In this document: in pieces, positions 9,101-62,264 of the stretch
Layout of the letters: each line of letters begins with the position of its first letter
Position numbering within the stretch: position 1 is the first letter of the stretch
From: Raillietiella orientalis
Taxonomy: Eukaryota
Assembly (NCBI GenBank): GCA_036172245.1
Contig: JAYWIR010000076.1
Location: 62,001 to 126,000, forward strand
Length of the DNA stretch: 64,000 nt
Direction: 5' to 3'
Notes under the pieces: generated by a model
Database searches by the model: none
Seen by the model: only the letters and a program-made list of their open reading frames with translations
What the model was told of the DNA's origin: nothing
Position numbers and translations under genes: made by a program

Positions 9101-9726
9101 GTTTTCCGACCCGTGTGCACAGGTCTTCGTCGAGGAAGACGTGGTCCACGCTGCTGACCATCCCGCTTATTTCTGTCAACAAGTTGCGCGCGCGCATGGC
9201 GGCGCACAACTCGTTGATCGCGTTACTCTGTGCTCCGGGCTGATGTGAGAGCCCACGGACGTTGAAATCCCCTGCTATCAGACGCCTTTCGCACGTCCGC
9301 GTCCACCAGCTATTCGCGCTTCAAGGTTTCCAGTAACGCGTTGCGCTGCTGGTATCCCTGTTTACCGCTAGGAGCGTACACATTGGTGACGATAAGGTCG
9401 ATCGAATCGGACCATCTGAGAATCAGTTGGCCGATCCGTCCGTCGTCCCCAAAGCGCACGCCCTTCACGGCCGCGTTAATGGCTGGCTTTAGGAAGAACG
9501 CGACCCCACAAGTGTTGCGGGCGCCGCATCGCCAGTACAACCAGCCTCCCGCAATCGTTTCGATCTCCTGGGCGTCTTTTGCGGTGATCACGTGGATCTC
9601 CTGCAAAAGTACCAGGTCGAAATCTCGCTAAAAGGCGGCTGTATCTCGTCTGTTTCCGTCCTCGCGCAGCCCGTTAACATTCCAACTGGCCGCGCGGATC
9701 CGACGGCGACAGGCGAGTCCAGGTGT
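6107..9726 (-). pseudogene. ORF2 endonuclease/RT/Cys-His finger (several stops and frameshifts)
   Basis: ORF pieces with LQEIH, NVYAP, VDHVF, WRPITI, DLHKAFD, RQSDSLSP and AYADD. Confidence 0.9.
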
Positions 9727-11476
9727 TATTCCTGGAAACCTGACGGTGGAGCTCCCGCCAGCTTTTTGGGCGGGTCGCTGCACGGGGTTGGCGTCTTGCC
9801 CACCAACTCCCCATCCTTCTTTCGTGCCGACATCTCCGGCTGCCCGTGCGAAGGGGGTGTTGTTCGTACCTGTTGGCCCACATCCATTGGTGCGGGTGGT
9901 TCAGGTTCGGCGGTTTCAGAGGTCATTGCTGACCCCTGGTTACTCTCCTCCATCGGATTCGCCTCCTCGTCGGCTTCCGCACGTGGGTGATGCCCGACTT
10001 GGGCTCCCACGCTGCCATCCACTGGTTCCTCCACCATTGGATCCCCCTCGCGCGGAGGCGCAATGCACCTTCGGGGTTTCTGGGATTTTCGCCCCGCTTT
10101 CCTTGGTGGTGCTTCCGCAGAGGAGGATGCACTTCCGGCTTCCCGGTCCGACTCACCTGCGGGGGCCACTTTAGCCGCTGCCGGCCTACGCAACCCCTTT
10201 CGCGAAGGGTTCTCGCGTTCGGCAAGCGTTCCCGCAAGTTCCTCGGCGGCCTTCTCGAAGGCTGCGTCCTTGGTTTCGGCGATTTTGTCGACCGGCTGAC
10301 CCTCTTCGCAAACGGGGGGTGGGTTTTTGTGCGCATTCGTCGGGGCGGGAAAATCGATCGAAGCCGTATCGCCTCCGGTGGTGTCCGCGGGAATTTCAAT
10401 GCGCTCCAGCGTAACCGTGCATTCTCGGAAAGTTTTTACGTGCGACACGGATTGAGCTTTTGTTCCGGCCGCCGCCTTCTCTCCTTTCTTCAGGACATGC
10501 TTGCCCTTTTTCTCTTTTTAAGGTTTGAATAGCTGCCAGCCATGTTTTCCCTCTGCGGTTTCGGGAAGATTTTTCTCCGATGCCGCGCTTGGAGCTTGGG
10601 TTATTGGCAGCTTTTCTCGGTTAGTTTCACGGTTTTCTAATTTTTCTTTCCCCGCGCGTTTCGCTTGCGTCTTTTTGGCGGCCGAGGAAATTGGGGTGGG
10701 GCGTTTAGGGCACACGCGACGGACGTGTCCCTTCTCCCCGCACAAGTAGCATACGATGTTCGGGCACCTCTTACGAATGTGTCCGACCGCATCGCAGTAG
10801 CCGCAATACCGTGGCTTGCCAGCATACCAGAGGTCTACTGGTTCTCCCGCGACCTAAAGTTTGTGGGGTAGCTTCGCTTTGTTTTTTGGGGTGACGCGTG
10901 CCGAGCGAGGCCCCCGAAGTGGCGTCCGTAGCCCTGAAAGATTGTGTGCTACGGCCACAGCGCGTGTACGTCCCCGTACTTACTTAGTTCTGCTTTTACG
11001 GCAGTGCGCGTCATGCGCTTGGATATTCCTGACAAGTGGACCACCACCGAGTGGTCCATTGACACCGGGAAGATCTTACGGCTGTCCATGATCAGCGGGG
11101 TATTTATGAGGCGAACGGCTAGGCTGATGCTCTTGCACACAAGCTCAACCCGCTGCGCCCAGCTGAGCACGCACAGACCTTCCAGATCTTCCTCACGGAT
11201 ATTAGCATTTTGAAGCGCTCTGCTGAAAGAGCGCGCCGTGTTTCCTTCAAACAAAGGGCCTACCTTGTATACAAGCGATGGCTTCTATTCAGAAGCCCGA
11301 TAGGCGGCTTCCTCGGCCATAGCCTCCGCACTGAGGGCGGCGACCATTTCACTCCAAGTCTTCGCCGTCTGCGAAGACGTTCCAGGGACTATTGCCCCTA
11401 TAGCTGTAGGTCTCGTGGTAGGACTTGCCTCTTCCACAACTACATCCATCGCGGTGTCCTCTGGCACGGCTGCCAT
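9726..11476 (-). pseudogene. ORF1 gag-like protein (disrupted)
   Basis: Starts MAAVPEDTAM; knuckle CYLCGEKGHVRRVC; Pro/Glu-rich C-terminus ending GFQE*. Confidence 0.85.
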
Positions 11477-11589
11477 CGGACACCGACGACCCACACTTTA
11501 CACTTGACTACACTAAAAACTCCGGTTGCTTCCCAGACAAGCGCTGGCGGAGCGCCTAAAACACACGTCCACCCACACCAGGTTTCAGG

Positions 11590-14949: not shown

Positions 14950-16660
14950 CGTCGGCTGGAGCCGAGCATTCCCGGTCCTGGTCGTCGAGCAGAACTGTCG
15001 CCCCTGACTGCCAGACCTGGCGCTCGGCCTTAGCCTTGTACTCGGATGATCGACCAACGACCGCGCGCCTGGAAAAGGAGCGGGCCTGCAGAAAATCTCT
15101 GCTGTTGGCTACGCCCTCTCCGAAGCCGCGTGGAAGCTGTTGCAAGGGAAACCGGCAGCAGAACTCGAGGACCGATCTTTTCAGATCGTCCCACTTTTCG
15201 AGCTCACTTATGGCAAAGCCGATGAGGTACTGACGAAGATGCTCAGCCGCCTCCGGGTGGCTTAGCCAGTCTGCCGGCATCCTCTAAAAACAGTTTGGAG
15301 GCCCCTTGCCTGGCGGGAGCAACTCGAACTCGAGCCTGTTGTGGTCTGAAAGCACAGACGGCACGGGACCTCTCCGACCCACTCAACAGAGCAAGTGTTC
15401 ATCAAGGTATACGTGGTCCGGCGTTGCTGCCATAACAGGGTCGCTAGCGAACAAGTTGCACGCGTGCACGGACGCGCACATCTCTTTCGCTAGCGAGTTT
15501 TCCCTTTTGTGGGATCTATTCTCGGAGGGAAGGTGGACGTTAAAGTCCCCCGCAATGAGATGGGCCACAGTAGAATGAGATCGAGTGAGCCACTGGCTTT
15601 GAAGGGTACCGAAGAACTCAATCCTTTTGGCCCATCGTCCAGCACCGCTCGGCGCGTACACGTTGGTTACGACAAGGTCGATCGAGTCCGACCACTTGAG
15701 TACAAGCTGTCCCACTCGGCCTTCCGTGTCGAAACGAACGCTGCGCACCGCTCTTGCCAAAGTTCCTCGCACGAGGAAAGCGACGCCGCACCTATAAAGT
15801 AGCGTTCCGCCCGCGCGCCGTTGGATTTCGGCAGCCTGCTCACCGGAGATGCTGTGAATCTCCTGCAGGAGCGTCAAGTCGAAGGCGCTCCGAGCGTCAG
15901 CCACTAGTCGCCTCTTCTCCTCGTGTTGGAGCCCGTTGACGTTCCAAGACGTTACGGCAACACGACGAGAAGACGCGATTGCCCTCATCACGGCTGGGAA
16001 AGCGAGGCCGTGGTGCTCGCCTCACCCGGCGAGCGGGCAGTAAGCAGCACGACGGGCTGGAGGGCGCGGTCGCCACCGGCCTCAACTGTGCTGCACGTAA
16101 TCGGGTGCTCCTCCCCGGGTGCAGAACCTGTGGGTTCCGGTGTGAGCACTCCTTGCTCCGCGGCGAGTGTGTCACGCCTCAGGGGATTCAGCCCTGCGGG
16201 CGCTCGCTCCCGCGCGAGTTACGCGTCGTTCAGCTGCGTTATGGGACTCCTTTGCGAAGTCTGATGCTCGCACGATCGACGTGCGCTTGCATCCGTCCGA
16301 TTGCACCGGAATGGTCTTCTCGGCGGTCACAGAAGCGGACTTCCACGCGTTGAAGGCGCTGGCTTTTTCCTTGGAAGAGGCATAAGCCGCGCGTGTTTTC
16401 GTATTCCCGCGACTGCTTTTTCCTTTGGAAGAGCTCAGGGATGGATGTTGCGAAGCTTTTTTTGGAGATTTTTCTTTCCTCCTCTCCACAACCTTCCATT
16501 CGCCTTCGCGATTTCCGGAGGCTTCCGCGACAGTAGTTGCGGAAACCTCCGGTATTTTCGCTGCGTTCTCTGGGGGCGTTGCTTTCGCTACGCCTTTTAA
16601 AGGCGGCAACGGAGTCACCTTCTTGACAGTCGGGAGATCGCTCCTCTCCTGCCCAGTCGG
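14950..16660 (-). mobile_element. 3' part of an F-related element (ORF1 C-terminus, endonuclease, linker); host of the tandem pair
   Basis: ORF 15383-15991 with WNVNG, LQE, NVYAP and GDFN; TGATG overlap at 15986-15990; joins 27928 across the TSD. Confidence 0.88.
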
Positions 16661-16831
16661 TGAACTTCCTCCGCGGCTCAAAGTATTGTGCTCTTGACAA
16701 CTAATTAGTTAATTGTGCTCGTGTGTGCCCGGAGAGGGGAAGTTTTCCAGAAGAAACAAAAAAAAAGAAGCGGCGAGGACATCGCGGCAAAAGACCTGCA
16801 GTGGTCCCGTGCAGCAAGACCAGCTGCCAGG

Positions 16832-18620
16832 ATGCAGGCACCTAGAAGAGGAGTGGAGAGACCGTCGTCCCCCATGGAAGCCATGGAGGTAACGTGCGGC
16901 AACGGCGATGCGGTGGCAGGCATGCCGAGGATCGCGCCCGCGGCGGGCTTTGCTGCGCCGGCGGCGGCGATGCCAAGGGTCGTGCCCGCGGCAACGACGG
17001 CGGAGGTCGTGCCCGCGGCGGCGACGCCGACGATCGTGCCCGCGGCGGGGAAGGTCGCGCCTGCCGCGGCGATGCCGAGGGTGCCGCCCGCGGCGGTAAC
17101 GGCGGCAACGTCGAGGTTTGCGCCCGCGGCGGTGGCGTCCCAGGAAGGACCCGCGGGCGTCCACGCGGTGCAGGGAGCGACGCGATCTTGTTCGGCTGCG
17201 GCGTCGCAGCCCTTTTCTTATGCGTCGGTGGCGGCTGGACAGGCGAGTGTCCACCCACCTAGGAAATTCGGTAAGCCGCTTAGCGGAAAAGTACTAAAAG
17301 TGGACCGACCAATAGACGAAATAGGCCCCAACGTGAAGCCCATTATCTTCAAGACGGGGCTAATAAAATTTAATAACATCAGGGAGGTCTATTTGTCCCT
17401 CGACAAGACGGACATAGACTTTGATCGCATTCAGGCGATCATTCCATCGAACAACGGGTTCACAGTCTTTACAGACTGTGAAAACATTAGAGAGCGATTG
17501 ATCCAGAAGGGGATCAATATACAAGGACGGATGGTTTGTGGTATTGGCGAGATGCCATACACAACCGTCTTTTTAAACGGCATCTCCATCCTCACACCGC
17601 AACTAGCGGTGTGGAATTACTTGGAGCAGTTTGGGAAAGTTCTGGACCTTGATTTCCAGAACTTCTCTGGAAACATATTTTCTGGCGACATGATCGCCAA
17701 GATGAAGTTGAGGAAGGGAGCGGTGATCCCTGGATTGGCCGTTATTGACGAACAATCCCAGGGAGTGAATGTGCGTTACCGGCAACAACCGGTATTCTGC
17801 ACCGGGTGCAAGCAGTTCGGTCACAGGGCCGGCTCTTGCCCAACGTGTTGTTGTTTCCGCTGCGGCAAAGTAGGACATCAAGTCCGAAACTGCCCGCATC
17901 CGGAGGTGTGCTCCTTCTGCAAGAAACACGGACATGCGAAATGGAGCTGTCCGGAGTTTGAAAACTGCAGATGGATTCGAGGTCTCTCTCCCGTGAGAGA
18001 GAGAAACATCAAGGAGGCCGAACAGCCTCAGAAGGCAGGAAGGCAGAAAAAAAGTGAAAGAAGCTGTCCCGGTGTCGGCGGACGGCTTCATAGAAATGGG
18101 AAAGAAGGGAAAGAGGAGGATGCTCGTCAAGGAGCAAGGAACTCCTCAAATCCTGGAAGCAGCAGAGCAGGAAGGCGAGAAGATGGAGGTAGCGCAGGAA
18201 GGCGCGAAGGAAGAGAGACAGGAAGCCACTAAAGTGTCGCAGGAGGCTCTGCAGACTACGGAGGAGTTGGCAATACTGGCGGAGGAAATCATGGAGGTGC
18301 AGAGCGGTCCTCAGCAAGAGAAAATCTTGCAGAAGATCTGCACTGCACAAGAGAACATCAACCAGGTGGTGGAGGTCGCTGAACGCGAGAAGTTAGAGGA
18401 ACAGCTTCTCGACGTGAAGGCGAACTTCTGCGCCAAGGTCGAGATAGAGGCACTATCTCGAAAATTGATCGCGCAGGCGGAACACTCTACGGAGGAGGCG
18501 GAAATTACCGACCTCACAGGAACGGAGAGTGACGCCGGCAGCGAGAAACCCGCTGCTTCTTCATTGTCTGGTAGAGCACGCTCTCTCAGACAGAAGAAGC
18601 TCAGGAAGGCCAAAAAATAG
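16832..18620 (+). pseudogene. ORF1 gag-like protein with three CX2CX4HX4C knuckles; one frameshift in an A-run near 18050
   Basis: CTGCKQFGHRAGSC, CFRCGKVGHQVRNC and CSFCKKHGHAKWSC; copy 2 is open across the frameshift. Confidence 0.9.
16921..17140 (+). repeat. Degenerate about 27-nt GC-rich coding tandem repeat (AAAMPRVVP-like) in ORF1
   Basis: Recurring (C)GTGCCCGCGGC units; same array at about 22555-22775. Confidence 0.8.
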
Positions 18621-18633
18621 GACTTCCCCTTGT

Positions 18634-21600
18634 ATGGCCTCTTCCCTATCGACCGCCAGGAGGATTAACATCGCCTCCTGGAACGTAAACGGTGTGGTCG
18701 ACCAGGGAAAAAGAAGAAGGATTGTGCGGACCATCGCACAACAAGACATCGTGTGCCTGCAGGAGTCCCACAGGATGGGTCTCGAGATAAGCCAGCGAAT
18801 GGAACGGCGATTCAACGGGCAGATGTTCGTCAACGAAGGAGAACGGAACACGAAGGGTGTGGCGGTGCTAATAAAGAACCACTTAGCCCCCACTATTCTG
18901 GAAGTGTTCTGTCCCCAGCCCGGACGAATCATCGGCGTGCGACTGGCCTGGTCCGCGACTGTTCACCTTATCCTGGTAAACGTGTACGGGCCGCACAGGC
19001 TAAAACATCGTTGTGCGGAGGCGCTGCATGCAACACTCCGGCAAAAGGTCGCCCCTAAGGACGTCGTGATTGTTGCTGGCGATCTCAACATCTTGGATGT
19101 GATCATTCATTCGGAAGACGCCAGAGGAAGGACGGCGTATCGACGGCTATCCGAGGAGTTCGGACTGGTCTGGCGAACAGCAAGCCACAAGCCAATCGAT
19201 CACGTTCTGCACAGCACCGAACTTGGGAACCGCATCCAGGGGTTTCGCGACACTATGACTACGGTGTCCGATCACCCCCTGGTGCGGTTTTCCCTAAGAA
19301 CGGAGAATCCTCGGCGGAGGCAAGGCACCAGGGCAGCGCTCATCAGCATGCCCGCCTGGTTCGAAACCCATCCCGGACATCAGGCTGTCCTGGAGGCGAT
19401 TCTGAGGGCAACAATAATCCGAAGAGTCGCCGACTGGGACAGCCTGAAACACAGGATACACCTGTTTGCGAAAATGCAGTTCGGGGATAGGCGCTTGAGG
19501 CAAGAGGCGTACCGGGAGCTGAACATCCAAGATCGCTCCCTCTCAAAGTACTTCGATCAGTACGAGAGTCGGTACGTCCTCAATAACATAAAAGGGGAAG
19601 TCGGCGTGCTGGAGAAGAGAAATCTGGCAACAGATATCTTCTGCATCCAGTACGACGGCCAAAAGCGACAGTCGTCCGAGGACATCGTGGATGCCTTTCA
19701 CAGGCATTACACGAAACACTTCAGGCGACAACAGCTGTGTCGCTCTAGTCAACAGGCCTTCTTGAGCTATCTCGAGAAGAGGATCGACGACCTCCAGCGG
19801 AACAGACTGGAGGAGGAGTTCTCCGAAGAAGAGGTGAAGACTGCGTTTGGGCAACTTCGCAAGGACGTGGCAGCGGGCCCTGACAGTGTACCCACCACGC
19901 ACTATCAGCGGTACCTGCACGCCTACCTGCGCTTGTTCCACCAGTTGACCCTCTGCATCCGGGAAGAAGGCAGACTACCTCAGTCCTTCTACGAGAGTCG
20001 GATGAGATTGCTGCCGAAAGGAGGCGACTCTACCCAGATCGCCCAATGGAGGCCAATCTCGATTCTAAACTCCGATGCCAAGTGGTTGGCGAAGATCTGG
20101 TCCAACCGCTTAGGCAAGGTCATGTCGAGGCTGATCTCTCCGGTCCAAACATGTGCAGTCCCAGGACGACACATGTCGGACAATGTCAAGTGTGCCCAGG
20201 ACACTGTTGGACTCAGTCGATACGTCGGCGAGAACCTGGTGCTGGTGTTCACTGACATGAAGAGGGCCTTCGACTCCATCGACCACGGGATGCTGCTGAA
20301 GGTTCTGGAGAAGCTAGGGCTTCCGGAACACTTCAGCAACTTCGTGAGGGCGGTACTCCAGAACTAGTACTGCCGGATCAAGATCAACGGCCAGGAAGCG
20401 GCAGCAATCAGGATGGAACGAGGAGTCCGACAGGGCGACTCGCTAAGTCCGATGCTGTTCGTCATCTATATGGAGGCGTTGTCGTCCTTTATCGAGAAGA
20501 GCGGACGACTAAGCGGGATTACCATCGATAGCCAGCGTCTTACCCATCTGGCATACGCCGATGATCTACTCTTTTTCATCAAGGGAGAGAAAAATCAGCG
20601 TGCGTTTCTGGATGTGGTGGACCTGATGGAACAGGGCTTGGGCTTAAAAATCAATTCCAAGAAGAGCCAGCTTTTGCCCGTCGGAATACTGGATCTCTCC
20701 ACTCTAACGGGTAGTGGATTCCGTACGGTGGACACGGCCAAGTACCTGGGAGTCTACATCGGCGACGGCTCTGCGTCGAAGCTGCTGTGGAAGGAAATCC
20801 TGGGGAACACGGCCAAGGAAGCAGCCAAGTACACCCGAACGGACCTTGGGATGAAGCGAAAGGCCAACATATGGAACGGAGTACTCCTTCCGAAAGTGCT
20901 CTTCGGGGCGGCCTTCGCGAGGATGAACAAGGAAACCACGAGGGAGTTCGACAAGCTGCAGAGAAAAACACTGTGGGGCCACTATCGCCCAAGAGTAAGA
21001 CTGAAACCCCTGTGTCGTCCCAGGGAAGAAGGCGGTTCCGGGATGAAGTCGCTTGCACATTCCATGGAAATCATGGATACGCGACACATCCTGGACATGG
21101 CCACTTACTGGGATGACTGGCCGTATGCGGCGCACCGGGCCTACGCGTTGTTGCTTAACAACTCGGAAGGCCTGATGACTGCGCTGCTAGGCAAAGTAGG
21201 GGAATGGATAACAATCGACCCGACCTGGAGGAGGAAGCAACCGCTGGTGCGGAAGCACCAAATCAAGATCGTGCCGCGAAGCAGGGAACTCTGGCAGGAC
21301 GAGTCCATCCTGGTGATCCCTTGGTTGCTTCCTGTCCCGCCGGACACGAGAAGCTGGATCTACCAGCGGTCCAGAGTTACCCTACTGCAAATCCAGGAGT
21401 GGAGGCGAGGAGGCTACCTACATCAAACACGTATACTTCGGTATACAGAGATGATGTTAGGAAGGTTTACCCACAGGACCCGCGAAGTGTGGTTCAACCA
21501 CAACGACTTCGCATGGTCGAGGGTAACCAGAACAAACCTCCGAAGGCTTATCCAAGAAAACGACCGCGACACCAGTGCCCTCCAGGAAGCCACCGAACGC

Positions 21601-22146
21601 TACGGGAGTGAACGGTTCAACCTGTTATCGATCGGAACGACGCTCTGGAGGAGTGACCTTCCACCGGGCACCCAGGATGACCTCCTGATGTTTTATCACG
21701 GAGGAATCCAAAGTGGGTCCCGATTGCAGCACTTCACAGGAAGACGGGAAGACCGAGACTGCGCAGCATGTGGAGACGACGACACGAGACTTCACGTCTT
21801 GACGTGTCCCACACTGCTGCATGACTGGCTGATTCTGAAAAGGATCATAGGACTTACCAACAAGTCCGTTATGGAGATCCTCGCCGGGATGTTTCATGGG
21901 GATGGTAATGTTCCCTGTTACAATCCCATGGTGAGGACGACCCTCTTCATCACCGCCATACTTGTGCGGTGGTGGAAAATGAGGAAAGCCAGGAGAGCCG
22001 CACCACCGATGGAGATCCTACAAGGGCTCTTGAAGAGGGAAATCGGCATCAGGAACTGCGGGAAGATCCACGCCTGGACGTACTGATTCATCCTGAAGAG
22101 GATCCAGGACGACGCCCGGGACCATCCAGCTGGAATTCCCCCCTGA
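18634..22146 (+). pseudogene. ORF2 APE endonuclease/RT in a single frame, with premature stops at 20365 and probably 22084
   Basis: WNVNG, LQES, GDLN, IDHV, SDH, WRPISI, RQGDSLSP, AYADD and CAACG; copy 2 has CAG and CGA at the two stop positions. Confidence 0.92.
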
Positions 22147-22465: not shown

Positions 22466-24253
22466 ATGAAGGCACCTATCGGAGGAGTAGAGAGACCGTG
22501 GTCCCCCATGGAAGCCATGGATGTAACGTGCGGCAACGGCGAGGCGGTGGCAGGCATGCCGAGGATCGCGCCCGCGGCGGGCTTTGCTGCGCCGGCGGCG
22601 GCGATGCCAAGGGTCGTGCCCGCGGCAACGACGGCGGAGGTCGTGCCCGCAGCGGCGACGCGGAGGATCGTGCCCGCAGCGGGGAAGCTCGCGCCTGCGG
22701 CGGCGATGCCGAGGGTGCCGCCCGCGGCGGTAACGGCGGCAACGTCGAGGTTTGCGCCCGCAGCGGTGGCGTCCCAGGCGGGACCCGCGGGCGTCCACGC
22801 GGTTCAGGGCGAGACACCATCTTGATCGGCTGCGGCGGCGCAGCCCTTTTCCTATGCGTCGGTGGCGGCTGGACAAGCGAGTGTCCACCCACCAAGAAAA
22901 TTCGGGAAGCCGCTATGCGGTAAAGTCCAAATGGTGGATCGACCGATCGTGGAGTTAGAGCCGAATGTAAAGCCCATCATTTTCAAGACTGGGCTGTTCA
23001 AGTTCAATAATATCAGGGAGGTGTATCTGTCCCTCGATAAAACGGACATGAATTTTGATCGCATACAGGCGATCATACCAGCAAACAACGGGTTCACAGT
23101 CTTCACAGACTGTGAAGAGATTAGAGAGCGATTGATCCAGAAGGGGATCAATATACAAGGGAGGATGTTTTGTGGTGTTGGCGAGATGCCATACACAACC
23201 GTCTTTCTGAACGGCATCTCCTTCCTCACACCGCACTCAACGGTGTGGAACTTTTTGGAGCAGTATGGGGAAGTTCTGGACCTTGAATTCCAGAACTTCT
23301 CTGGAAAAATATTTTCTGGCGACATGATCGCCAAAATGAAGTTGAAAGAGGGAGCTGTGATCCCTGGATTAGCCGTTCTTGACGAACAATCTCAGGGAGT
23401 GAACGTGCGTTACCGGCAACAGCCGATATTCTGCACCGGGTGCAAGCAGTTCGGCCACAGAACCGGCGCTTGCCCAACGTGTCGTTGTTTCCGCTGCGGC
23501 AAAGTTGGACATCAAGTCCGAAACTGCCTGCAGCCGGAGGTGTGCTCCTTCTGCAAGAAACACGGACATGCCAAATGGAGCTGTCCGGAGTTTGCAAACT
23601 GCAGAAGGATTCGAGGTCTCTCTCCCGTGAGAGAGAGAAACACCAAGGAGGCGGAACAGCCTCAGAAGGCAGGAAGGCCGAAGAAGGTGAAAGAAGCCGT
23701 CCCGGTATCGGAAGACGGCTTCATACAGGTAGGGAAGAAAGGAAAGAGAAGGATGCTCGTCAAGGAGCAAGAAACCCCTCTTATCCTGGAAGGTGAAGAG
23801 CAAGAAGGCGAGAAGATGGAGGTAGCGCGGGAGGGCGCGGAAGAAGAAAAAGCCGAAGCCACTCCGGCGTCGCAGGAGGCCCTGCAATCTACGGAGGAGT
23901 TGGCATCACTGGCTAATGAAGTCTTAGAGGTGCAGAGCGGTCCCCAGCAAGAGAAAATCTTGCAGAAGATCTGCAATGCACAGGAGAAGGTCAACCAGGT
24001 TGTGGAGGTCACCGAGCGCGAAAAGCTAAAGGAACAGCTTCTCGACGTAGAGGAGAACTTCTGCGCCAAGGTCCAGATAGAGACGCTATCTCGAAAACTG
24101 ATCGAGCGGGCCGAACACTCGACGGAGGAGGCGGAAGTAACCGACCTCACCGGAACAGAGAGTGACGCCGGAAGCGAGAAGCCCGCTGCTTCTTCATTGT
24201 CTGGAAGAGCACGCTCTCTCAGACAGAAGAAGCTCAGGAAGGCCAAGAAATAG
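22466..24253 (+). pseudogene. ORF1 with three CCHC knuckles; one premature TGA at 22823
   Basis: ORFs 22349-22825 and 22862-24253 are in the same frame; copy 1 has TGT at the stop. Confidence 0.9.
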
Positions 24254-24266
24254 GTCTTCCCCTTTT

Positions 24267-32932: not shown

Positions 32933-32933
32933 C

Positions 32934-45133: not shown

Positions 45134-45164
45134 AATAAACGCCCCGGGCGTACCCGGGTGTAAA
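45134..45164 (+). terminator. 3' terminus: AATAAA followed by a GC-rich stem-loop and AAA, with no poly(A)
   Basis: AATAAACGCCCCGGGCGTACCCGGGTGTAAA directly abuts the TSD. Confidence 0.75.
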
Positions 45165-45535
45165 CCTCCAAGGCTGGCAAAAAGGCAGTGAGGTGTCCGG
45201 CCTCCTCCGAGGAGTCGGTAACTTCCAACCCCGAAGCGCAGGCCGGAATCCATGTTTCCATCTCCGTGGCACCCCGCCGGAAGGCTGGAAGGAAGTCCAG
45301 GAATCCTCGGAAAGCCCCTCTCCAGGTCCAAGGCGTGGAGATGACTTCCGACTGCGAGGGTGCCATGAGCGTGGGTGAATCCCGGGAATCGTCACCCGAG
45401 AGACCACCACGCACAGACACGGAGGAGATGGAGGGGGTTGAAGCCGGAAAGGTACCCAAAGTGCCTGAGGAGGCTGAAACCATAATGGTCATCTCACCCG
45501 CCTCGGAAGAGGCGGGTTCCCCCCCCACCGTCATC

Positions 45536-45557
45536 TTCCCGGCAGTAATGCCGGGAA
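45536..45557 (+). promoter_or_regulatory. ORF1/ORF2 junction hairpin TTCCCGGCA-GTAA-TGCCGGGAA containing the overlapping stop-start TAATG
   Basis: Perfect 9-bp stem with a GNRA tetraloop; analogous stems in other subfamilies. Confidence 0.7.
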
Positions 45558-49366: not shown

Positions 49367-52098
49367 TGTGGGTGGAAGTGTTTTTTGGTCTCTCCGCCAG
49401 CGCTTGTCTGGGAAGCAACCGGAGTTTTTAGTGTAGTCAAGTGTAAAGTGTGGGTCGTCGGTGTCCGATGGCAGCCGTGCCAGAGGACACCGCGATTGAT
49501 GTTGTTGTGGGGAAGGCAAGTCCTACCACAAGACCTACACCTATAGGGGCAATAGTCCCTGGAACGTCTTCGCAGACGGCGAAGACTTGGAGTGAAATGG
49601 TCGCCGCCCTCAGTGCGAAGGCTATGGCCGAGGAAGCCGCCTATCGGGACTCTGGATACAAGCCATCGCTTGTATACAAGGTAGGCCTTTTGTTTGAAGT
49701 AAACACGGCGCGCTCTTTCAGCAGAGCGCTTCAAAATGCTAATGTCCGTGAGGAAGATCTGGAAGGTCTGTGCGTGCTCAGCTCTGCGCAGCGGGTTGAG
49801 CTTGTGTGCAAGAGCATCAGCCTAGCCGTTCGCCTCATAAATACCCCGCTGATCATGGACGGCCGTAAGATCTTCCCGTTGTCAATGGACCACTCGGTAG
49901 TCGTTTACTTGACAGGAATTTATAAGCGCATGACGCGCAGTCCCGTAAAAGCAGAATTAAGTAAGCACGGGGACGTACACGCGCTGTGGCCGAAGCCCAC
50001 AATCTTTGAGGGCTACGGACGCCACTTCGGGGGCCTCGCCGCGGCACGCATAACCCCAAAAGACGAAGCGAAGCTACCCCACAAACTTGAGGTCGTGGGA
50101 GAAACGGTAGACCTCTGGCATGCGGGCAATCCACGGTATTGCGGCTACGGCGATGCGGTCGGGCACATTCGAAAGAAGTGCCCAAACATCGTATGCTACT
50201 TGTGGGGGGAGAAGGGACACGTACGTCGCGTGTGCCCTTAACGCCCCACCCCAATTTACTCGGCCGCCAAAAAGGCGCAAGGAAAACGCGCGGGGAAAGA
50301 AAAATTGGAAAACCGTGAAACGGGCCGAGAAAAGCTGCCAATAACCCAAGCTCCAAGCGCGGCATCGAAGAAAAATCTTCACGAAACCGCAGAGGGAGAA
50401 CATGGCTGGCAGCTAGTCAAAGCTTAAAAAGAGAAAAAGGACAAACATGTCTCGAAGAAAGGAGAGAAGGCGGCGGCCGGAACAAAAGCTCATTCCGTGT
50501 CGCGCGTAAAAACTCTCCGAGAATGCACGGTTACGCTGGAGCGCATTGACGTTCCCGCGGACAACACCGGAGGCGATACGGCTTCGATCGATTTTCCCAC
50601 CGCGACGAATGCGCGCGAAAACCCACCCCCTGCTTGCGAAGAGGGTCAGCCGGATGACCAAATCGCTGAAACCAAGGACGCAGCCTTCGAGAAGGCCGCC
50701 AAGGAGCTTGCAGCAACGCTTGCCGTACGCGATAACCCTTCGCGAAAGGGGTTGCGTAGGCCGGCAAAGGCTAAAGTGGCCCCCGCAGGTGAGTCGGACC
50801 GGGAGGCCGGAAGTGCATCCCCCTCTGCGGAAGCACCACCAAGGAAAGCGGGACGAAAATCCCAGAAAACCCGAAGCTGCAATCCGCCTCCAAGCGAGGA
50901 AGATGCAATGGTGGAGGATCCAGTAGATGGCAGCGTGGAAACCCAAGTCGGGCATCACCCACGTGCGGAAGCCGACGAGGAGGCCACTCCAATGGAGAAG
51001 GGTAACCACGGGTCAGCAACGCCCTCTGTAACCGCCAAACCTGAACCACCCGCACCAATGGATGTGGGCCAACAGGTACGAGCACCCCCTTCGCACGGGC
51101 AGCCGGAGACATCGGCACGAAATAAGGATGGGGAGTTGGTGGGCAAGACGCCAACCCCGTCTAGCGACTCGCCCCAAAAGGTGGCGGGAGCACCACCCAT
51201 AGGTTCCCAGGAATAACACCTGGACTCGCCTGTCGCCGTCGGATCCGCGCGGCCAGTTGGAATGTTAACGGGCTGCGCGACGACGGAAACAGACGAGATA
51301 CTGCCGCCACCTTGCGAGATTTCGACCTGGTGCTTTTGCAGGAGATCCACGTGATCACCGCAGAAGACGCCAAAAAGATCGAAACGATCGCGGGAGGGAG
51401 GTTGTACTGGCGATGCGGCGCCCTCAACACTTGTGGGGTCGGGTTCTTCTTAAAGCCAGCCATTAACGCGGCCGTGAAGGGCGTGCGCTTTGGGGACGAC
51501 GGACGGATCGGCCAACTGATTCTCAGATGGTCCGATTCCATCGACCTCATCGTCACCAATGTGTACGCTCCTAGCGGAAAACAGGGATACCAACAGCGCA
51601 ACGCGTTACTGGAAACCTTGAAGCGCGAATGGCTGGTGGACGCAGACGTGCGAAAGGCGCATCTGATAGCAGGGGATTTCAACGTCCGTCTGCTCTCAGA
51701 TCAGCCCGGAGCACAGGGTAACGCGAACAACGAGTTGTGCGCCTCCATGCGCGCGCGCAACTTGTTGACAAAAATGAGCGGGATGGTCAGCAGCTAGGAC
51801 CACGTCTTCCTCAACGAAGACCTGTGCACACGGGTCGGAAAACGAGGGATGCTTGGATCGACGCTGTCGGACCATTGCCGGTCATTATTCGAGATGCGCC
51901 CGCGCGACAAGGGACCGCCATCCAGGGATTGGCGTATGCCAGGGTACTTGACGTGCCTGTCAGGAGCGAAAGAACATCTTCGCGAATTCCTGCGAGGCGT
52001 CACCCTCCAGAGTCTCGCGGATTGGTACCTATTTGAGGATTCGGTCCGGCAGTTCTGCGAACAGTTGCCTGTGCAACGTCTGACCCGGGGATCCAGCG
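49367..52098 (+). mobile_element. Subfamily C element, 5' half (ORF1 49468-51216 and endonuclease), cut at the 'GFG' site
   Basis: Close homologue of the reverse complement of about 8847-11577. Confidence 0.92.
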
Positions 52099-53911
52099 TT
52101 GTCACCCGGGGACGCCCGGGGCGTTTATTTGTAAACTCTACATACGTAGTACGAGGCCCCACCACGGCCGTAAACACGCGACCTGTCGAAACACCGGGAC
52201 GAAGCCCGGCGTGGCACTCTTCGACAGCGAAGGGGGATGGGGATAAGACAAAAAGAAAAACAAAAAGAAACAAACAAATAAAAGTTGGAGGGCGGGGAAG
52301 AGATTACTTTTCTCTGTGGGGAGGGCCCATCCGTCGAACGAAGCCCTTGAGGTCAGTCTGCATATTCCCCTGTTGGGTCCATTCGGCAGCTCTTCGCAAG
52401 AAGCGTTGGACATACGGGATGACATCCCTCGCTCGTGGACCCACTCCTTCATTGTTGGCGTCGCTCCATGCCGCCACGATGCCACGGACGCAGCACAAGG
52501 CTTCGATGGCTGCGGCGGGCTGGAGTGCGTCCTTCACGAAGAGGGGCCGAAGAACGTCTCTGGGAGTGCTGCCTGTAGGGAGCCCGAGGGTCGTCCCGAA
52601 CCGTTCCCAAAGGGGTCGGAGGGCAGCACAATCCACAATAAGGTTGGAGAGCGATTCCCGCTCTCCGCACCTGACACACGCAGGATCCACAACTCCTCTT
52701 GTCCAGTGAGAGCGGCGTGCGTTGCAGGGTAAACCCCAATGCAACAACAGCAACGCCGACTCTTTCCAATTAAGGGGCAGGATCCTGGATTCCTGAAGAA
52801 GCGGGGGCCACTTCAGCACATCCATAGGGATGACCAGCAGCTCGCCCCATCTTCTTAGCCCTCGCAACTGGAAATCGGTGTCGTGGCGTCGGCCAGTTCT
52901 CCTGTTGTCCAGCCGCTGATCAACTTCTCACGTCCCTTGATGCAGCAGGAGACTTGCCACCTTGGCGTCCGGCTGCTGTGAAGTGCCCTCCTCAGGAAGG
53001 GCAGCGCCGTAGCTAGGCAGGTGGTCTCTGCCCACGTGCATCTTGCTGGACTCTCTAGGATCTCTAGGAGATTCCACAGCGTGCAGCGGGCGTAGGGGCT
53101 GCATCGGAGACGATTCCACGTTTCGTGGCTCCTCTGGTTAACCGCTACCCACGATCCAATATTCTCCTCCAGCCAGGCGGGGGAGTTGGCGGGGCAGCAA
53201 ACCATCCAGCTGTAATCCTCGGCCAATGTTGTCATGCGCCCAAGCAGTAGGCCGCATCTTCGCATCTTCCGGCCACAGCTCAGAAGAAAAGACGCGAGTC
53301 CATCGCACCGGGACACACGGCTGGCCAGGAGGCGGGCCGGAGTGCACCAAGGGGTGCTCCACATCTTCGCTGCGATGGCGAGGGCTCGCCACCGCAGCTC
53401 CTTCTCCACGCGCTCCAGCGTCAGGAGGCGAAGACCGCCGTCGCGACGCGGAGCGCACAAGTCCTTCAGAGGCACTCGGAGCCTCCCCTTGCCCCAAAGG
53501 GCGATACGGAGAAGGTCCTTTTTCCTCTTCTTCCATTTCACGGTGGGGGGGGCAAACAAAAAGGAAGGGGCGTAGAATGGGGGCCGCGAAGGCGTTCCAA
53601 ACCGCGGCCCGTTCCGGCAAGTGAAACTTGCCTTCCAGGAACGAACTGATCGCCGTCTCGACTTTTTGGAGGCAGCTCGACCACGCTTTCGCAGTGGAGT
53701 AGTCCCCCAACGGCACACCAAGGTACTTGAAGTACCTCGCCGTGGAGATCCCCAGACGGACCCAGTCCTGCAGCCTTGCCCACGCCGCATTTATTGGCAC
53801 AAGCGACGACTTCGCCCTGTTAACCTGCAGTCCGGTCCCGCGGCTGAGCAGATCGAAGAAGTCTCCGACCGCCTTTGCCGGGGTGGACATTGGCAACAAG
53901 AGCAGAAGATC
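52099..53911 (-). mobile_element. Subfamily C element, 3' portion (from just after YADD to the 3' end)
   Basis: Colinear with 5902-7731; 3' UTR and terminal hairpin. Confidence 0.9.
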
Positions 53912-55893
53912 ACGCGATCCTTTCGATCTCCTGGGCGTTCTACGCGGTGATCACGTGGATCTCCTGCACGAGTGCCGGGTCGAAGTCACGCAGGGTGTCG
54001 GCAGTGTCCCGCCTGTTGCCGTCATCGCGCAGCCCGTTGACGTTCCAGCAGGCTACGCGTATCCCACGGCGACAGGGGAGTCCAGGTGTTAATCCTGGGA
54101 AATGGGCAATGGGGCTCCCGCCCTCTTGTCGGGCGGGACGCTAGGAGGAGGGGGTGCGTCGCGCACCGCTTCTCCCCCCTCCATGGAGGACGATTCGTCG
54201 TCGGGGCCTTGCAGAGGAAGTAGGGGTTCAACCACCTGCACATCGTCCTCCATGGTCGCTAGCTGTACGGTGTCGGGAATGAGATATTCCCAGTCTCGCC
54301 TTTCACGCTGCTAGCTTCCCCCTCAGGGGCCGATTCATCCGCCTCCTCATTGATCCGGATGCGTTTCCTGGGATTCTAAGACTCACGTCCCGTCTTCTTT
54401 GCTGGAGTCCTTAATTGAAAGGACGCACTTTCAACGTCCGGACAGGCCTCACCTGCCCCCGGAGCCTTCCTCGCGGCCGGCCTTCGGAGGGGTTTTCGCA
54501 AGTTCTTTTCACGGTTCGTCAGTTCAGCCGTGAGTTCTTCCACGGCCTGCTGGAAGGCGGCCTCCTCGATCGCGTCGAGCGCGGCGCGCGTTTCCCCCTC
54601 TGTTTCGCCAGAGGGTTCACCATCGACCGTCGCGACTTCGGCGGACGCGAGGGGTTGGATTGCTCCCCCAATGGTTGCATTAAGTGCCTTTACACGTTCT
54701 AATTTTACCGAACACGCGCGGAGCTTTTCGCGGCACGGTTTTTCGCGCTGCGTTTTTGTTTTCACCGCGTTTCGTTCGGGACTCCCGGGTTTTCTTCGTG
54801 GCTCTACCGTCTGCCAGCCGTCGCCGTCACCAGCGTCGTCGGGAGTGTTCTTAACCGACGTTTGCTGTGAGGGCTTCGGGACTGGCATCTGGGTGTTAAC
54901 AGCCTGTTTCTGTGTATGCGTCTCTCCCGTGCGTTTCCCCTTTGCCTGTTTGGCGGAGGATGGGGACGGCATTTTTCTTCTTGGCCACACCTTACGGATG
55001 TGGCCCTTATTTCCACATAAGTGGCATTGGTTGTTAGGGCACCGGTTTTTTAGATGCCCTGTGGCATCGCAATGGCCACAATACTTGGGATTACCCACGT
55101 ACCAAACATCGACTTTTTCTTTGCCGATATTCAGTTTGTGGGGAAGCCCACCATTCTCTGGTAGGGTGACGCGGGCTGCGGCCATCACACTGAATAGCCT
55201 TTTGTACGTTCGGAAGACATTGGGTTTGGCCCAATACGCGTGCACACTACTATGCTTCGACAACTGCTTATGGACGCTGGTTTTGTCCATTCAGAGGGAT
55301 ACGCCCGTGAGGTGGACCACGACGGAGCGGTCCTCCATCACAGGGAAGATCCTGCGGCCGTCCACCGTAATAGGGGTGTTCAGCAGTCGCTGCGCCAGAC
55401 TTGCCTCTTTGCATGTCAGCTCAACTCGCTGGCCCCCACTAAGGACGGATAGGGCTTCAAGGTCTTCCTCCCTCACGTTCAACCTTTGCAGCTCCATTTC
55501 GAAGGAGCGTCCAATTTTTCCATCAAACACACTGCCTAACTTATAGATCAGAGACGGCTTGTAGCCGCTGTCCTTGTAGGCAGTCTGCTCCGCTACTGCA
55601 GCCGGGGATGGTGCAGCAACGACGTCACTCCAGCTCCTCGCCAATGGCGAAGAGTGTCGCGAAGGGGCGGTTGCCCCCAATTCCGATGGGGCAACTGCCC
55701 CGGATTCCATGGGGGCAGATGCTCCCACTTTCATTGGTGGAGGAGAGCATGTCGCTTCTCCTCCTGCAACTTCCATCGCGGTGTCCTCAGGCATTTCTGC
55801 CATTGGACACCGGTGCTGCCACACACCAGACAGCCAACGAAAAGCTTTCCACTAACCAGTCCGTTGAGCGATGCCAAACCACGTCCGCTCCGT
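53912..55893 (-). mobile_element. Subfamily I element, 5' portion (ORF1 55803-54089 and start of the endonuclease)
   Basis: CGHCDATGHLKNRC and CHLCGNKGHIRKVW; WNVNG; GCGGACGTG 5' motif. Confidence 0.88.
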
Positions 55894-55909: not shown

Positions 55910-56736
55910 GTGTGAACGCAAACTGTGCTCGGAGAGGGGAGTAGGCAACCCTCGCGCACCTCGCGCACGCTCGCCGCGAATCAACGCGAAGTCTCCACAA
56001 ATTCCGACGGGGTTAGGCCTGGCGTGGAGGCTTCACACGCATGCAGCACGACAAACGACGGTGGCGACCATCCCCTCTAGCCAGTCGTGCTGCTCTCCGT
56101 CTGCTCGCCGGACAAAGCAAGCAAAAAGCCGCCACCTTCCCAGCAGTAATGCGGGGAATCGCGTCTTCTCGTCGTCTGTCCTAACGTGTTGGAACGTGAA
56201 CGGACTACAGAACGACGAGAAGAGGCGATTAGTAGCCAACGCCCTGCGCCCCTTTGATTTTGCGCTCCTGCAGGAGATTCACGTAATCTCCGACGAGCAG
56301 GCAGCCGAAATCGAGGAGCGCGCTGGCGGAACGCTACATTGGCGGTGCGGCGGCGCACACACGTTCGGCGTCGCGTTCCTCGTTAGAGGAAATATAGCGT
56401 AAGCGGTGCGTAGTGTTCGTTTCGATGACGACGGACGGATAGGCCAGCTTGTCATTAAGTGGTCCGAGTCCATCGATCTCGTCGTTACGAACGTCTACGC
56501 ACCGAGTGGCTCTCGCTACCTCGAAGAAAGAGTAGCTTTCTTTGGTGAGGTGCAGAGCCACTGGCTCAACAACTCCGGCTTCAAAGTGGCGCACCTCGTC
56601 GCTTGGGACTTCAACGTCCGCCTGCTCTCCGACGATTGGAGCCGCCCGAGGGAGCGCGCGCTGCCCATCGAGATGTGCGCGTCCGTGCACGCCGCCAACT
56701 TGATGGTCAACGAACCTGGAATGGAAAGATCGCTTC
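55910..56736 (+). mobile_element. Subfamily F fragment (ORF1 C-terminus, TAATG at 56147-56151, endonuclease)
   Basis: Near-identical to about 2458-3243. Confidence 0.9.
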
Positions 56737-57269
56737 ATCTGCCCATCTGGTTTCAGGCGAACGTTGAAATTGCCTGCAACCAGATGGGCATCTTGCACGC
56801 CTGCTTCGGTCAGCCAGTCGCGCCGGAGTGCAAGGAAAAACTCTTTTCTCGCCCTCCTGTTCATCAGGTCCACGCCGCGTACACTTTCGTGACGATCAGT
56901 TCGATCGAGTCGGACCACCTGAGAGTCAGGTGGCCGACATGACCGTGATCGTCGAACCGCACGCCCCGAGCCGCGGCCTCGACGGCTGGCCGAAGCAGGT
57001 AGGCGACACCGCAACTTTTCGGTCTCCCACACCTGTACCACAGCCGCTCCCCTGAGATCCGTTCGATCTCTTGCTCTTGTTCTGCAGAGATCACGTGGAT
57101 CTCCTGCAGCAGCGCAAGGTCGTAGGACTCCAGAAGGGTGGCCATGTCTCGTCTCTTGGCGGCGTCTCTCATGCCGTTCACGTTCCAAACGGCGATGCGC
57201 AGACGACGGCGGGAGAAGGACCTTAATCACCTTAATCTTCCCGGCATTACTGCTGGGAAGATTAAGGTG
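56737..57269 (-). mobile_element. Inverted D/E-type endonuclease fragment starting at the ORF1/ORF2 junction
   Basis: RRLRIAVWNVNG and LQEIH; similar to 29290-29633 and 45533-46040. Confidence 0.85.
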
Positions 57270-57282
57270 TAGGGGAATAGAA

Positions 57283-57731
57283 GGGTAATCGGCAAAGGAT
57301 CTTCCTATATGGAAGTAGCCGCCAGATTGCCCCAATTGACCAAGCATACGAAAAGAGATCTCGCTAGCATACGCCGACGGTTTACAGACGCTACCCAACA
57401 GCGCACCCGGTGAACCTTTCCCCTCGCCCCCTTCAAATTTTTTTCTTTTTTCCACTTCCGCCCAATTAGGCTCCGGAACATTTTAGGTGCTCTCTATTTG
57501 AATCCCCGTGAGTGCGGAGCTTCACCAAGGACCCGTTACCCCTCCCTCCAGATTTTTTTTTTTCTTTTGTGTGTGTTTTATCCCTCTACTCCCTCAGTGT
57601 TGTTGGAAGCGGTTTGTTAACCAGGCCTGAGTGCCGCTAACTTCTCTTTGCTCCTTGTCATTTCTTTGGTTAACGACATCGTCTTTGACAGGTTTATTTT
57701 CAATAAGCGCCCCTGCGTGACCGAATGAAAA
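57283..57731 (+). mobile_element. Subfamily F 3' end (ORF2 terminus and 3' UTR)
   Basis: Similar to 5072-5516, including TAGGCTCCGGAACATTT. Confidence 0.85.
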
Positions 57732-60008: not shown

Positions 60009-60009
60009 T

Positions 60010-60727
60010 CCGACGGATGACCTAAAGTGGCCCCCATTGTTCATTGATTCATCAATCCTCCCCTAAAGTGGCAGCAAACGGAGCTGTTGTTGTTGCACTG
60101 GGGTCTTCCCTGCAACGCGCGAGGCCACCACTGGACGTGGGGGAATGTTGAACAGAACTGTGCAGTGTGCGGGGAGAAGGAATCCCTCCCCCATCTGTTA
60201 GTGGACTGCGGTGCCATCCGGCCCTTGTGGGAACGTCATGCTACGGCACTCCCTATGCCGGTCGGCTGTACCCCCAGAGACGTTCTGAGACTCCTCTTCG
60301 TGCGATAAGCCCTGACACCAGCCTCAGCCCTGGCAGCACTTTGCTGCCTTGTGGCCGCGTAGAGCGCAGCCAACAGAGGAAGCAGGCACAGGGAACCCAT
60401 CGTACACGCTGGTAGATACCTGCGAATTGCGATCGGCTGGTCCTATCTAGGAACAATGAAGAGGGACCTTCAGGGAATCCTCGAAAGGATGGTCTCTTCC
60501 TCCAGCGGGCTGTGATCCCTTCTTGGCCCTCCAAATAGTTTCTTTTCGTTAATTTCTTTTCTTTTTCTTTTCGTTTTCACACCCTACCCCCTCCGCTGCC
60601 AAGGAGAGTCAAGCCGCCTTGAGAGCCGGCTTCCCGGCAGGTCCACAGAACTATTGGCCATAGCGGGGCCTAGTACCGCGAAAACATAGTGTTCAGGAAT
60701 AAACGCCCCAACGAGACAGGGTGAAAA
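60010..60727 (+). mobile_element. Short 3' fragment (Cys/His finger to 3' end)
   Basis: CAVCGEKESLPHLLVDC; ends AATAAACGCCCCAACGAGACAGGGTGAAAA. Confidence 0.85.
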
Positions 60728-62264
60728 CTTCCCCGTGTCGTTCTAGAGAGCGGACGTGGTGTGGCATCGCTCCAAGGAATGGTTAGAGGGAAGCTTTTCG
60801 TTAATTGTCTGGTGTGTTTGAGCACCGGTGTCCCATGGCAGCAATGCCTGAAGACACCGCGATGGAAGCTGGAGGATGAGAAGCGACATGCTCTCCTGCA
60901 CCAATGAAAGTGGGGCGTCCGCTTCCACGTAATCCGGGGCAATTGTTCCATTGTAATCGGGGGCAACCGCCCCTTCGAGACTCTCATCGCCATTAGCTTT
61001 GAAGGCTCCGGAGGCAGGTAAGGCCGATCCAGACATCGAAAGTGCGTCCTCTTCAGCGTAGGCGCCACCAAAGAAGACGGGACGTGAGTCTTAGAATCCC
61101 AGGAGGCGCATCCGGATCAATAAGGAGGCGAATAAATCGGCCCCGGAGGAAAAAGTCGGCAGCGTGGGAGGCAAGGGTGGGAATATCTCATTCCCCGACA
61201 CCGTGCAGCTAGCGACCATGGAGGAGGATGTGCAGGTGGGTGAACCCCTACTTCCTCTGCAAGGTCCCGACGACGAATGGTCCTTAATGGAGGAGGGAGA
61301 AGCGGTGCGCGACGCAACCCCTCCTCCTAGCGTCCCGCCCGACAAGAGGGCGGGAGCCCCATTGCCAATTTCCCAGGATTAACACCTGGACTCCCCTGTC
61401 GCCGTAGGATACGCGTAGGCTGCTGGAACGTCAACGGGCTGCGCGATGACGGCAACAGGCGGGACACAACCGACATCCTGCGTGACTTCGACGTGACACT
61501 CCTGCAGGAGATCCACGTGATCACCGCGTACAACGCCCAGGAGATCGAAAGGATCGCAGAGGGTCGTCTGTGTTGGCAATGCGGCGCTCGCAACACATGT
61601 GGCGTCGCGTTTCTTATCATGCCAGCAGTCGCTTCCTTCGTCAAGGACGTACGATTCGACAAGGACAGTTGGGTTGGCCAGCTTATCCTTAGGTGGTCCG
61701 ACTCGATAGATCTTGTCGTGACTAATGTGTACGCTTCGATCGGAGGACGCCGGTACGGGGAACGTTCCCGGTTCCTCGATACCCTGAAGCACGACTGGCT
61801 GGAGGAAACAAACGTACGAAAGGCACATCTGATCAGTGGGGATTTCTACATCAGCCTGCTCTCGGGTGTGCCTTGCAGACAAAAAGACGCAACCACCGAG
61901 TTACGCGCCGCTATGCATACGCGCAACTTGCCGGGGGACCTAGCAAAAATTACTCAAAGCGTAGACCCCGTCTTCCTTGACGCCGACCTGTGCCCACGGG
62001 TCGGCAGACCAGGGAAACTTTCGTCAACGCTATCGGACCACTTGCGGTTGATAATAGAGATTATGCCACGCGACAAAGGACCACCATCCAGGGCGTGGCG
62101 TATACCAGGGGACTGGACGCGCATCTCCGGTGCAGCGGAACATCTCCGTCAGTTCCTCTGAAGTGTCATACTCCGAAACCTCGAAGACTGGGACCGCATG
62201 AAGATCTCGGTATGCGAGTTCTGCGAGAATTTCCCTTTGCACCGCCTGCCCCAGGAATTTGGTG
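60728..62264 (+). mobile_element. Subfamily I element, 5' portion with an internal ORF1 deletion (about 61000), cut at the 'GFG' site
   Basis: Matches 55910-55650 and then 54460-53915 (reverse complement); EN ORF 61493-62161. Confidence 0.88.

Follow-up and report, generated by a model that had tools for sequence, protein, structure and literature searches.

The window analysed here is a 64,000-nucleotide stretch of Raillietiella orientalis DNA (assembly GCA_036172245.1, contig JAYWIR010000076.1, positions 62,001 to 126,000 of the forward strand; G+C 54-62%). It consists of nested, mostly fragmentary copies of related L1-like long interspersed nuclear elements (LINEs), as traced by tblastn with the open reading frames (ORFs) of the best copy, designated “copy I”. 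In one clade of these elements (subfamilies I, B and C) the ORF1 stop codon runs into ACA, giving TAACA, where sister lineages carry the ATG of ORF2. Purifying selection acted on ORF2 of this clade after the ATG was lost. The conserved hairpins of the junction, chiefly a long stem-loop downstream of the stop (hp3), are described here for the first time; they were missed by the first-pass annotation and are the most informative feature of the system. Judged from these comparisons, there is about an even chance that ORF2 of the TAACA clade is made by termination-coupled restart without an AUG.

TAACA was present at all five sites at which the first-pass annotation had placed it. Because the pentamer is common in the window (62 matches versus 48 expected; 62 was reached in 6/100 shuffles), its count alone is uninformative, and homology is what matters. 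The five sites share one column of a conserved junction, TTCCCAGGAnTAACACCTGGaCTC, and are scored at 99-106 bits by a covariance model made from six junctions, by construction. In six sister copies the start codon stands in the same register as ACA, within TAATG in four and TGATG in two. The twelve junctions, with the ORFs of copy I, are listed below.

39612-44699, forward strand: copy I, the best copy, with ORF1 and ORF2.
39612-41361, forward strand: ORF1 of copy I; two CCHC knuckles followed by a long Pro/Glu-rich tail.
41361-44699, forward strand: ORF2 of copy I, which lies in the -1 frame with respect to ORF1 and encodes an endonuclease, a reverse transcriptase and a C-terminal zinc motif.
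41307-41309, forward strand: a TAG that interrupts the ORF2 frame of copy I 17 codons before ACA, so that a frameshift could occur only within about 50 nt.
41359-41363, forward strand: TAACA of copy I; the ORF1 stop TAA (41359-41361) overlaps ACA (41361-41363), which replaces the ORF2 ATG of the sister lineages.
9724-9728, reverse strand: TAACA of copy B1, which has a nearly full-length ORF2 (9777 down to 6382).
51214-51218, forward strand: TAACA of copy B2.
61380-61384, forward strand: TAACA of copy C1, with no match to the ORF1 body upstream.
54087-54091, reverse strand: TAACA of copy C2; its ORF1 body lies upstream (55845-54460).
182-186, forward strand: TACCA of copy I2, a relic of the same junction that has lost its stop by decay.
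2653-2657, forward strand: TAATG of sister copy ATGa1, a close relative of ATGa2.
56147-56151, forward strand: TAATG of sister copy ATGa2, a close relative of ATGa1.
45546-45550, forward strand: TAATG of sister copy ATGb1.
57249, reverse strand: TAATG of sister copy ATGb2, which is rearranged.
15986-15990, reverse strand: TGATG of sister copy ATGc.
34236-34240, reverse strand: TGATG (within ATGATG) of sister copy q31.

The TAA of TAACA is a real ORF1 stop, since the ORF1 body and tail of copy B2 form one frame that ends at this codon, and the tail of copy B1 is in the frame of the adjoining half of its ORF1 body. ACA, in turn, lies at the homologous N-terminus of the endonuclease: with ACA as residue 1 of the query in a PDB search, residues 8-200 align with residues 6-195 of the human L1 endonuclease. 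In the ORF2 frame of copy I the first ATG is at 41871, after the codons for the WNVNG (41403), LQE (41481) and GDFN (41817) motifs. The ATG, the place of the three motifs before it and the TAG upstream of ACA agree with the first-pass annotation, but copy I, its best copy, is not intact (a frame change in ORF1 near 40936-40940 and a single in-frame stop in ORF2 at 43038-43040). The TAG 17 codons upstream is kept in 4/5 TAACA copies and is CAG in B1. No variant fell within 41349-41375 among the 40 variant places listed for 26 DNA contigs of run X1 (covering 41200-41600 at a likeness of at least 80%), contigs from which rare variants are dropped. Note that the sample of TAACA-type junctions comprises 6 copies, representing about 3 subfamilies, from one 64-kb window of decayed copies.

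Phylogenetic analysis and substitution rates bear out the earlier claim that ACA is inherited and not a product of decay. A maximum-likelihood tree (IQ-TREE) was made from endonuclease residues 19-300 of 14 copies, with a distant LINE family as the outgroup, leaving out C2 (76 codons only) and fragments that do not contain these residues. Copies I, I2, B1, B2 and C1 separated from the ATG copies and the outgroup with an ultrafast bootstrap (UFBoot) value of 87. Sequence flanking the junction has diverged to the same extent as the rest of the element, which speaks against the junction having passed recently from one subfamily to another. Ratios of nonsynonymous to synonymous divergence (dN/dS) were derived from codon alignments guided by tblastn onto copy I, after removal of codons 1-18 and of any codon with a stop or gap. 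The values obtained, with the confidence interval (CI) where given and the number of bootstraps that reach 1, were as follows.

I versus B1, 1102 codons: dN/dS 0.336 (CI 0.287-0.390), 0/200 bootstraps.
I versus B2, 290 codons: dN/dS 0.268, 0/200 bootstraps.
I versus C1, 302 codons: dN/dS 0.260, 0/200 bootstraps.
B1 versus C1, 299 codons: dN/dS 0.273, 0/200 bootstraps.
B2 versus C1, 289 codons: dN/dS 0.294, 0/200 bootstraps.
B1 versus B2 (within-subfamily control), 287 codons: dN/dS 0.78 (CI 0.47-1.38), 43/200 bootstraps.

The control shows that the pipeline is able to return values near 1. The first-pass annotation had named an ORF2 dN/dS near 1 as the result that would undo its proposal; between TAACA subfamilies the ratio is 0.26-0.34, also in the four ORF2 segments tested, except for the C-terminus (0.49). 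For codons 19-187, within the stretch from ACA to the first ATG, it is 0.21-0.29, values that show the endonuclease N-terminus of the TAACA clade to have been, in all probability, translated without any ATG. Synonymous divergence between the subfamilies amounts to 0.4-1.0. The ORF2 of copy I has one stop in 1129 codons, and so few stops point to a recently inserted copy of a lineage that was probably active long after the ATG was lost.

Three predicted hairpins occupy the junction. Their positions in copy I are:

41309-41336, forward strand: hp1, a GC-rich hairpin 22 nt upstream of the stop, within the ORF1 tail.
41351-41369, forward strand: hp2, CCCAGG-AGTAACA-CCTGGG; its loop holds the stop and ACA.
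41370-41442, forward strand: hp3, a stem-loop of about 73 nt that begins 8-9 nt after the ORF1 stop and has its apex on the W-N-V-N-G codons.

The stem-loop hp3 is found in 11/12 junction copies, in ATG and ACA lineages alike, and is part of the minimum-energy fold of every lineage even though the sequences of its arms differ. Folding energies for positions +3 to +90 are -56.7 kcal/mol for I, -43.8 kcal/mol for ATGa1 and -43.6 kcal/mol for q31. Ranked by energy against background windows, hp3 stands at 0-19 of 548 in 9/12 copies and at 10 of 283 in I2; it is weaker in ATGb1 (101 of 548) and absent from the rearranged ATGb2 (254 of 548). In an alignment of the 11 copies other than ATGb2, which was left out as rearranged, most pairs of the outer helix (columns 20-37 with 75-92) are predicted in 8-11 rows. 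Pairing was observed in 78.9% of cells versus 72.8% after shuffling (0/500 shuffles reach the observed value), and controls in which the structure was slid along the alignment gave 31-51%. Changes on both sides of a pair were seen at nine pairs (8/500 shuffles) and in 22 cells (0/500), and the covariation score was 0.220 versus 0.121 (0/500); these figures should be read with the fact that the structure was specified from the same related sequences on which it was tested. Taken together, the folds and the covariation are strong support for hp3 as a conserved, predicted RNA structure. A long hairpin also folds over the WNVNG codons in the distant outgroup LINE family (16709-22086 and 22826-27149). 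No match to Rfam was obtained at the gathering score; hp3 and a hairpin at 41249-41314 match microRNA-precursor models far under threshold.

The junction of ATGb2 itself (57205-57290, reverse strand) is a long near-perfect palindrome in which the small hairpin has been lengthened to ∼18 bp (-30.9 kcal/mol, z -5.96). The ORF1 tail of this copy has been replaced by unrelated AT-rich sequence and hp3 is missing, and the whole has the appearance of a rearrangement at the hairpin by snap-back or template switching.

In ATG lineages, hp2 occupies the same place as TTCCCGGCA-GTAA-TGCCGGGAA, with the U and G of the AUG paired; ATGb1 has the strongest example (-17.0 kcal/mol). The register differs by one base between the ATG and TAACA forms, and two compensatory pair exchanges, C-G to G-C and G-C to A-U, can be read from the sequences. 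In 5/7 lineages a strict test places the stop within a hairpin loop, a level reached by only 2/418 homologous ORF2 positions; in q31, TGATG sits in the 3′ arm of the small hairpin and not in the loop. We regard hp2 as a candidate recurrent hairpin enclosing the stop, with moderate confidence. As for hp1, hairpins of different sequence stand 22-28 nt upstream of the stop in the other lineages, those of q31 (both hp1 and the small hairpin) being quite different in sequence, and a helix of at least 7 bp of this type occurs in 5/7 lineages. It is a weak candidate for a conserved element. Beyond the 6 training copies, a covariance model of hp1 plus hp2 found two places and no others, 45487-45572 (E 6e-4) and 34214-34301 (E 0.09). 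The 35-row alignment consisted mostly of noise and did not enter the pair counts. At the outgroup junctions (18570-18665 and 24203-24298), small-hairpin structure was not significant (z +0.73 and -0.76).

At about ORF2 codon 62 (about 41493 in copy I), a small hairpin folds over the LQEIHV codons in 6/7 lineages, a level that no further position of the 418 reaches. Conserved palindromic codons may produce it as a side effect.

Restart without an AUG is the most economical reading of the junction, because the ATG sisters already have a stop-start overlap together with a conserved downstream hairpin, and the TAACA clade differs only in having no AUG. Of the three routes offered by the first-pass annotation (non-AUG reinitiation, a -1 frameshift and splicing), restart is the one favoured. 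In this family the end of ORF1 and the start of ORF2 share one pentanucleotide, UAAUG or UGAUG, with hp3 8-9 nt downstream. In the clade formed by I, B and C, AUG was replaced by ACA and the small hairpin re-paired around the stop, while the stop and hp3 were kept. Ribosomes finishing ORF1 at UAA would most likely be held at the junction by hp3, placed at the mRNA entrance, and translation would resume in the ORF2 frame at or beside ACA with no AUG. The requirement for termination, the place of restart and any use of initiator tRNA are inferred from the sequences. A plausible path for the loss of the ATG is from ATG to ACG, a near-cognate start, and from ACG to ACA by CpG decay; no copy with ACG at the junction is present in the window. 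In a further version of the restart, the start would need neither AUG nor initiator tRNA, and post-termination ribosomes held by hp3 would resume elongation in the -1 frame at NUA-ACA. We put this forward tentatively, as the less probable course.

Several observations weigh against restart without an AUG. ACA differs from AUG at two positions, and the ORF2 frame has no conserved near-cognate codon beside the stop, the only one being an AUH codon 9 codons downstream. The geometry of hp3 would suit a stimulator of -1 frameshifting equally well. Taken alone, the energies of hp2 are unremarkable (top 8-26% of background windows for TAACA copies), and 20/403 null positions match the occurrence of hp1-type helices. 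Synonymous sites directly after ACA show no significant extra conservation (6/9 versus 62/133). No intact TAACA copy is present in the 64-kb window. In the coupling study of SART1, a telomeric LINE (Kojima et al. 2005), the AUG was reportedly needed.

A fused ORF1-ORF2 protein could instead arise from the same arrangement if the ribosome made a non-canonical -1 slip at the stop codon. While UAA occupies the A site, with hp3 lying 8-9 nt downstream, a P-site tRNA reading GAG, GAA or GAU would move back onto GGA, and decoding would continue with NUA-ACA. ORF2 indeed occupies the -1 frame, which has no stop over the 17 codons leading up to the end of ORF1, and hp3 stands at a spacing typical of frameshift stimulators, for which the rule is 5-9 nt. 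In all three TAACA subfamilies, GGA is the -1 codon of the last sense codon (GGA-nTA-A), with GCA in the ATG lineages, and tRNA-Glu(UUC) on GGA would be expected to pair G-C, G-U and A-U. However, the C-to-G change that makes GGA also re-pairs hp2, the P-site GAU (Asp) of subfamily C re-pairs poorly, and dN is about equal to dS in the 17-codon overlap, not only in the ORF2 frame but in both frames, so that no frame stands out as selected there. Near TTCCCAGG, where the first-pass annotation suggested a -1 frameshift, a canonical slippery site is absent in 5/5 stop-keeping TAACA copies (I, B1, B2, C1 and C2): over the final 60 nt of ORF1, its frame has no X_XXY_YYZ heptamer. Frameshifting of the canonical -1 kind is unsupported. 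Reviews, in the passages that deal with two-ORF LINEs (SART1 and human L1), attribute ORF2 to restart or novel initiation and not to fusion. We consider the non-canonical slip rather unlikely. Lower still is the probability that the small subunit moves on and initiates with initiator tRNA at the AUH codon (AUU, AUC or AUA) 9 codons after ACA, giving an endonuclease 9 residues shorter. That codon is the only near-cognate one in the ORF2 frame common to 6/6 TAACA-type copies and, judged from the alignment to the human L1 endonuclease, initiation at this codon would still fall ahead of the first strand; but it lies within the 5′ arm of hp3, and AUH codons are weak starts. Moreover, through synonymous changes, TCC versus AGT for Ser among them, the 8 preceding codons (P-G-L-x-S/C-R-R-R) have remained similar to their counterparts in the ATG lineages (P/R-G-I-x-S-x-R/C-R), which suggests that the codons before AUH are translated.

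Two other explanations would dispense with an unusual start altogether. TAACA lineages might make no ORF2 protein, being dead or mobilised in trans by the ATG lineages, as could be thought from the decayed state of every TAACA copy in the window and from the ATG-bearing relatives in the same cluster. Against this, the copies form one clade, their ORF2 dN/dS is low (with 0.78 returned by the same pipeline within a subfamily), the synonymous divergence built up after the shared ACA arose, and the ORF2 of copy I is nearly open; decay and non-autonomy are unlikely for these reasons, and we would give this explanation very little weight. Equally improbable to us is that an ATG is supplied in the RNA, either by splicing of an in-frame upstream exon onto the acceptor-like TTCCCAG|G or by editing of ACA to AUG. 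All lineages have kept TTCCCAG|G, which looks like an acceptor with a pyrimidine tract and CAG, but the same bases serve as the 5′ arm of hp2 and as the S-Q codons of the ORF1 C-terminus, which explains their conservation, also in ATG lineages. Under cis preference, a spliced RNA would be preferentially copied by its own ORF2 protein, and no copy that has lost the ORF1 tail was seen in the window. Editing would need two different base changes.

By their ORF2, the elements belong to the L1 superclade of LINEs with an AP (apurinic/apyrimidinic) endonuclease, as ORF2 of copy I carries an N-terminal AP-endonuclease (Pfam PF03372, E 2.9e-10) and a reverse transcriptase (PF00078, E 7.7e-14, 52.3 bits at a cut-off of 29.6). 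The closest solved proteins in a PDB search are human LINE-1 ORF2p (E 2.9e-34 and 4.9e-11). For ORF1, zf-CCHC scored 19.6 bits, under the cut-off of 20.8; two CX2CX4HX4C motifs are visible in the translation, and no further domain was assigned. A protein search at E <= 1e-10 gave 2 relatives. No close relative of the TAACA/TAATG family was found among 80 metagenome loci kept from a scan by endonuclease alignment (24-36% identity).

Other features of the window were also recorded. The two copies of the distant LINE family (16709-22086 and 22826-27149, forward strand) are arranged head to tail ∼5.6 kb apart, with ∼28% ORF2 identity to copy I. In both, the ORF1 stop (TAG) does not overlap the ORF2 ATG but lies 13 nt from it. 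The element with the C2 junction (52562-54140, reverse strand) matches ORF2 residues 1-76 and then jumps to 675-1129. Its 3′ part is nearer to subfamily B than to C, and it may represent an internal deletion or two abutting elements. In copy ATGb1 (45164-45550, forward strand), the ORF2 frame extends 128 open codons beyond the ATG in the upstream direction, through sequence like that of the ORF1 tail; here this tail is in frame with ORF2, either through an indel or as a single-ORF variant. The most stable 83-nt windows of the 64 kb (-55 to -64.5 kcal/mol, both strands) lie at 6371-6467, the 3′ end of ORF2 in copy B1, and at 41224-41341, the repeat-rich end of the ORF1 tail of copy I (PMEEGxQ repeats).

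On the translation of ORF2 from bicistronic LINE RNA, the two best-studied cases, SART1 (AUG plus structure) and human L1 (apparently AUG-independent), disagree. The present family supplies natural sister lineages with and without an AUG that share conserved RNA structures, and these could let the roles of structure, stop and start codon be told apart directly. Should reading without AUG or initiator tRNA prove true, it would be a natural, long-lived and structure-defined case of what has so far been seen only in engineered human L1, namely AUG-independent ORF2. There is also a warning for annotation: ORF finders that require an ATG would call such elements ORF2-less or dead.

Known systems resemble this junction in part. 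For caliciviruses and influenza B, the termination upstream ribosome-binding site (TURBS) is described in passages of Sherlock et al. 2025 (PMC11921876) as a stop-start overlap with a stem 12-24 nt upstream of the stop and a UGGGA motif that pairs with 18S rRNA. The sister copies share the overlap (UAAUG/UGAUG) and, in hp1 at 22-28 nt, a weak candidate for an upstream stem. Unlike TURBS, the dominant structure here is downstream and the TAACA clade has no AUG; the defining UGGGA is missing, with TGGGA found within 90 nt upstream of the stop in 0/12 junctions, and a TURBS-type element was rejected. With -1 programmed frameshifting of the gag-pol type, the TAACA elements have in common an ORF2 in the -1 frame, a short overlap and a stable stem-loop 8-9 nt downstream; they differ in having no slippery heptamer and in that the would-be shift site is the stop codon. 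Literature searches found no natural AUG-less LINE junction of the UAACA type, which is not proof that none is in print.

The nearest parallels are two LINEs. SART1, from Bombyx mori, couples its ORFs through UAAUG, and its efficiency of ORF2 initiation depends on downstream secondary structure, according to passages of PMC3708506, PMC10275272 and PMC5972666. As there, a bicistronic LINE RNA has secondary structure just downstream of the junction: here hp3, 8-9 nt after the stop in 11/12 copies. The overlap of the ORF1 stop with the ORF2 AUG is found in the 6 sister copies and not in the 5 TAACA copies. Unlike SART1, which is of the R1 clade, the TAACA elements are L1-like, have no AUG and have a second, small hairpin predicted to enclose the stop, all of this being known from sequence. 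For human LINE-1, review passages describe ORF2 initiation as independent of its AUG (PMC5009743) and as “unconventional termination/reinitiation” (Alisch et al. 2006, via PMC5009743 and PMC5972666). ORF2 expression that does not depend on an AUG is likewise predicted for the TAACA clade, whose closest solved ORF2 relatives are human L1 ORF2p. As these sources describe it, though, human L1 has a 63-nt spacer and a natural AUG, and its AUG-independence is known from engineered mutants, whereas the TAACA clade has no spacer and naturally lacks the AUG. By analogy, the TAACA system would work like SART1 coupling minus the AUG, or like engineered human L1 minus the spacer.

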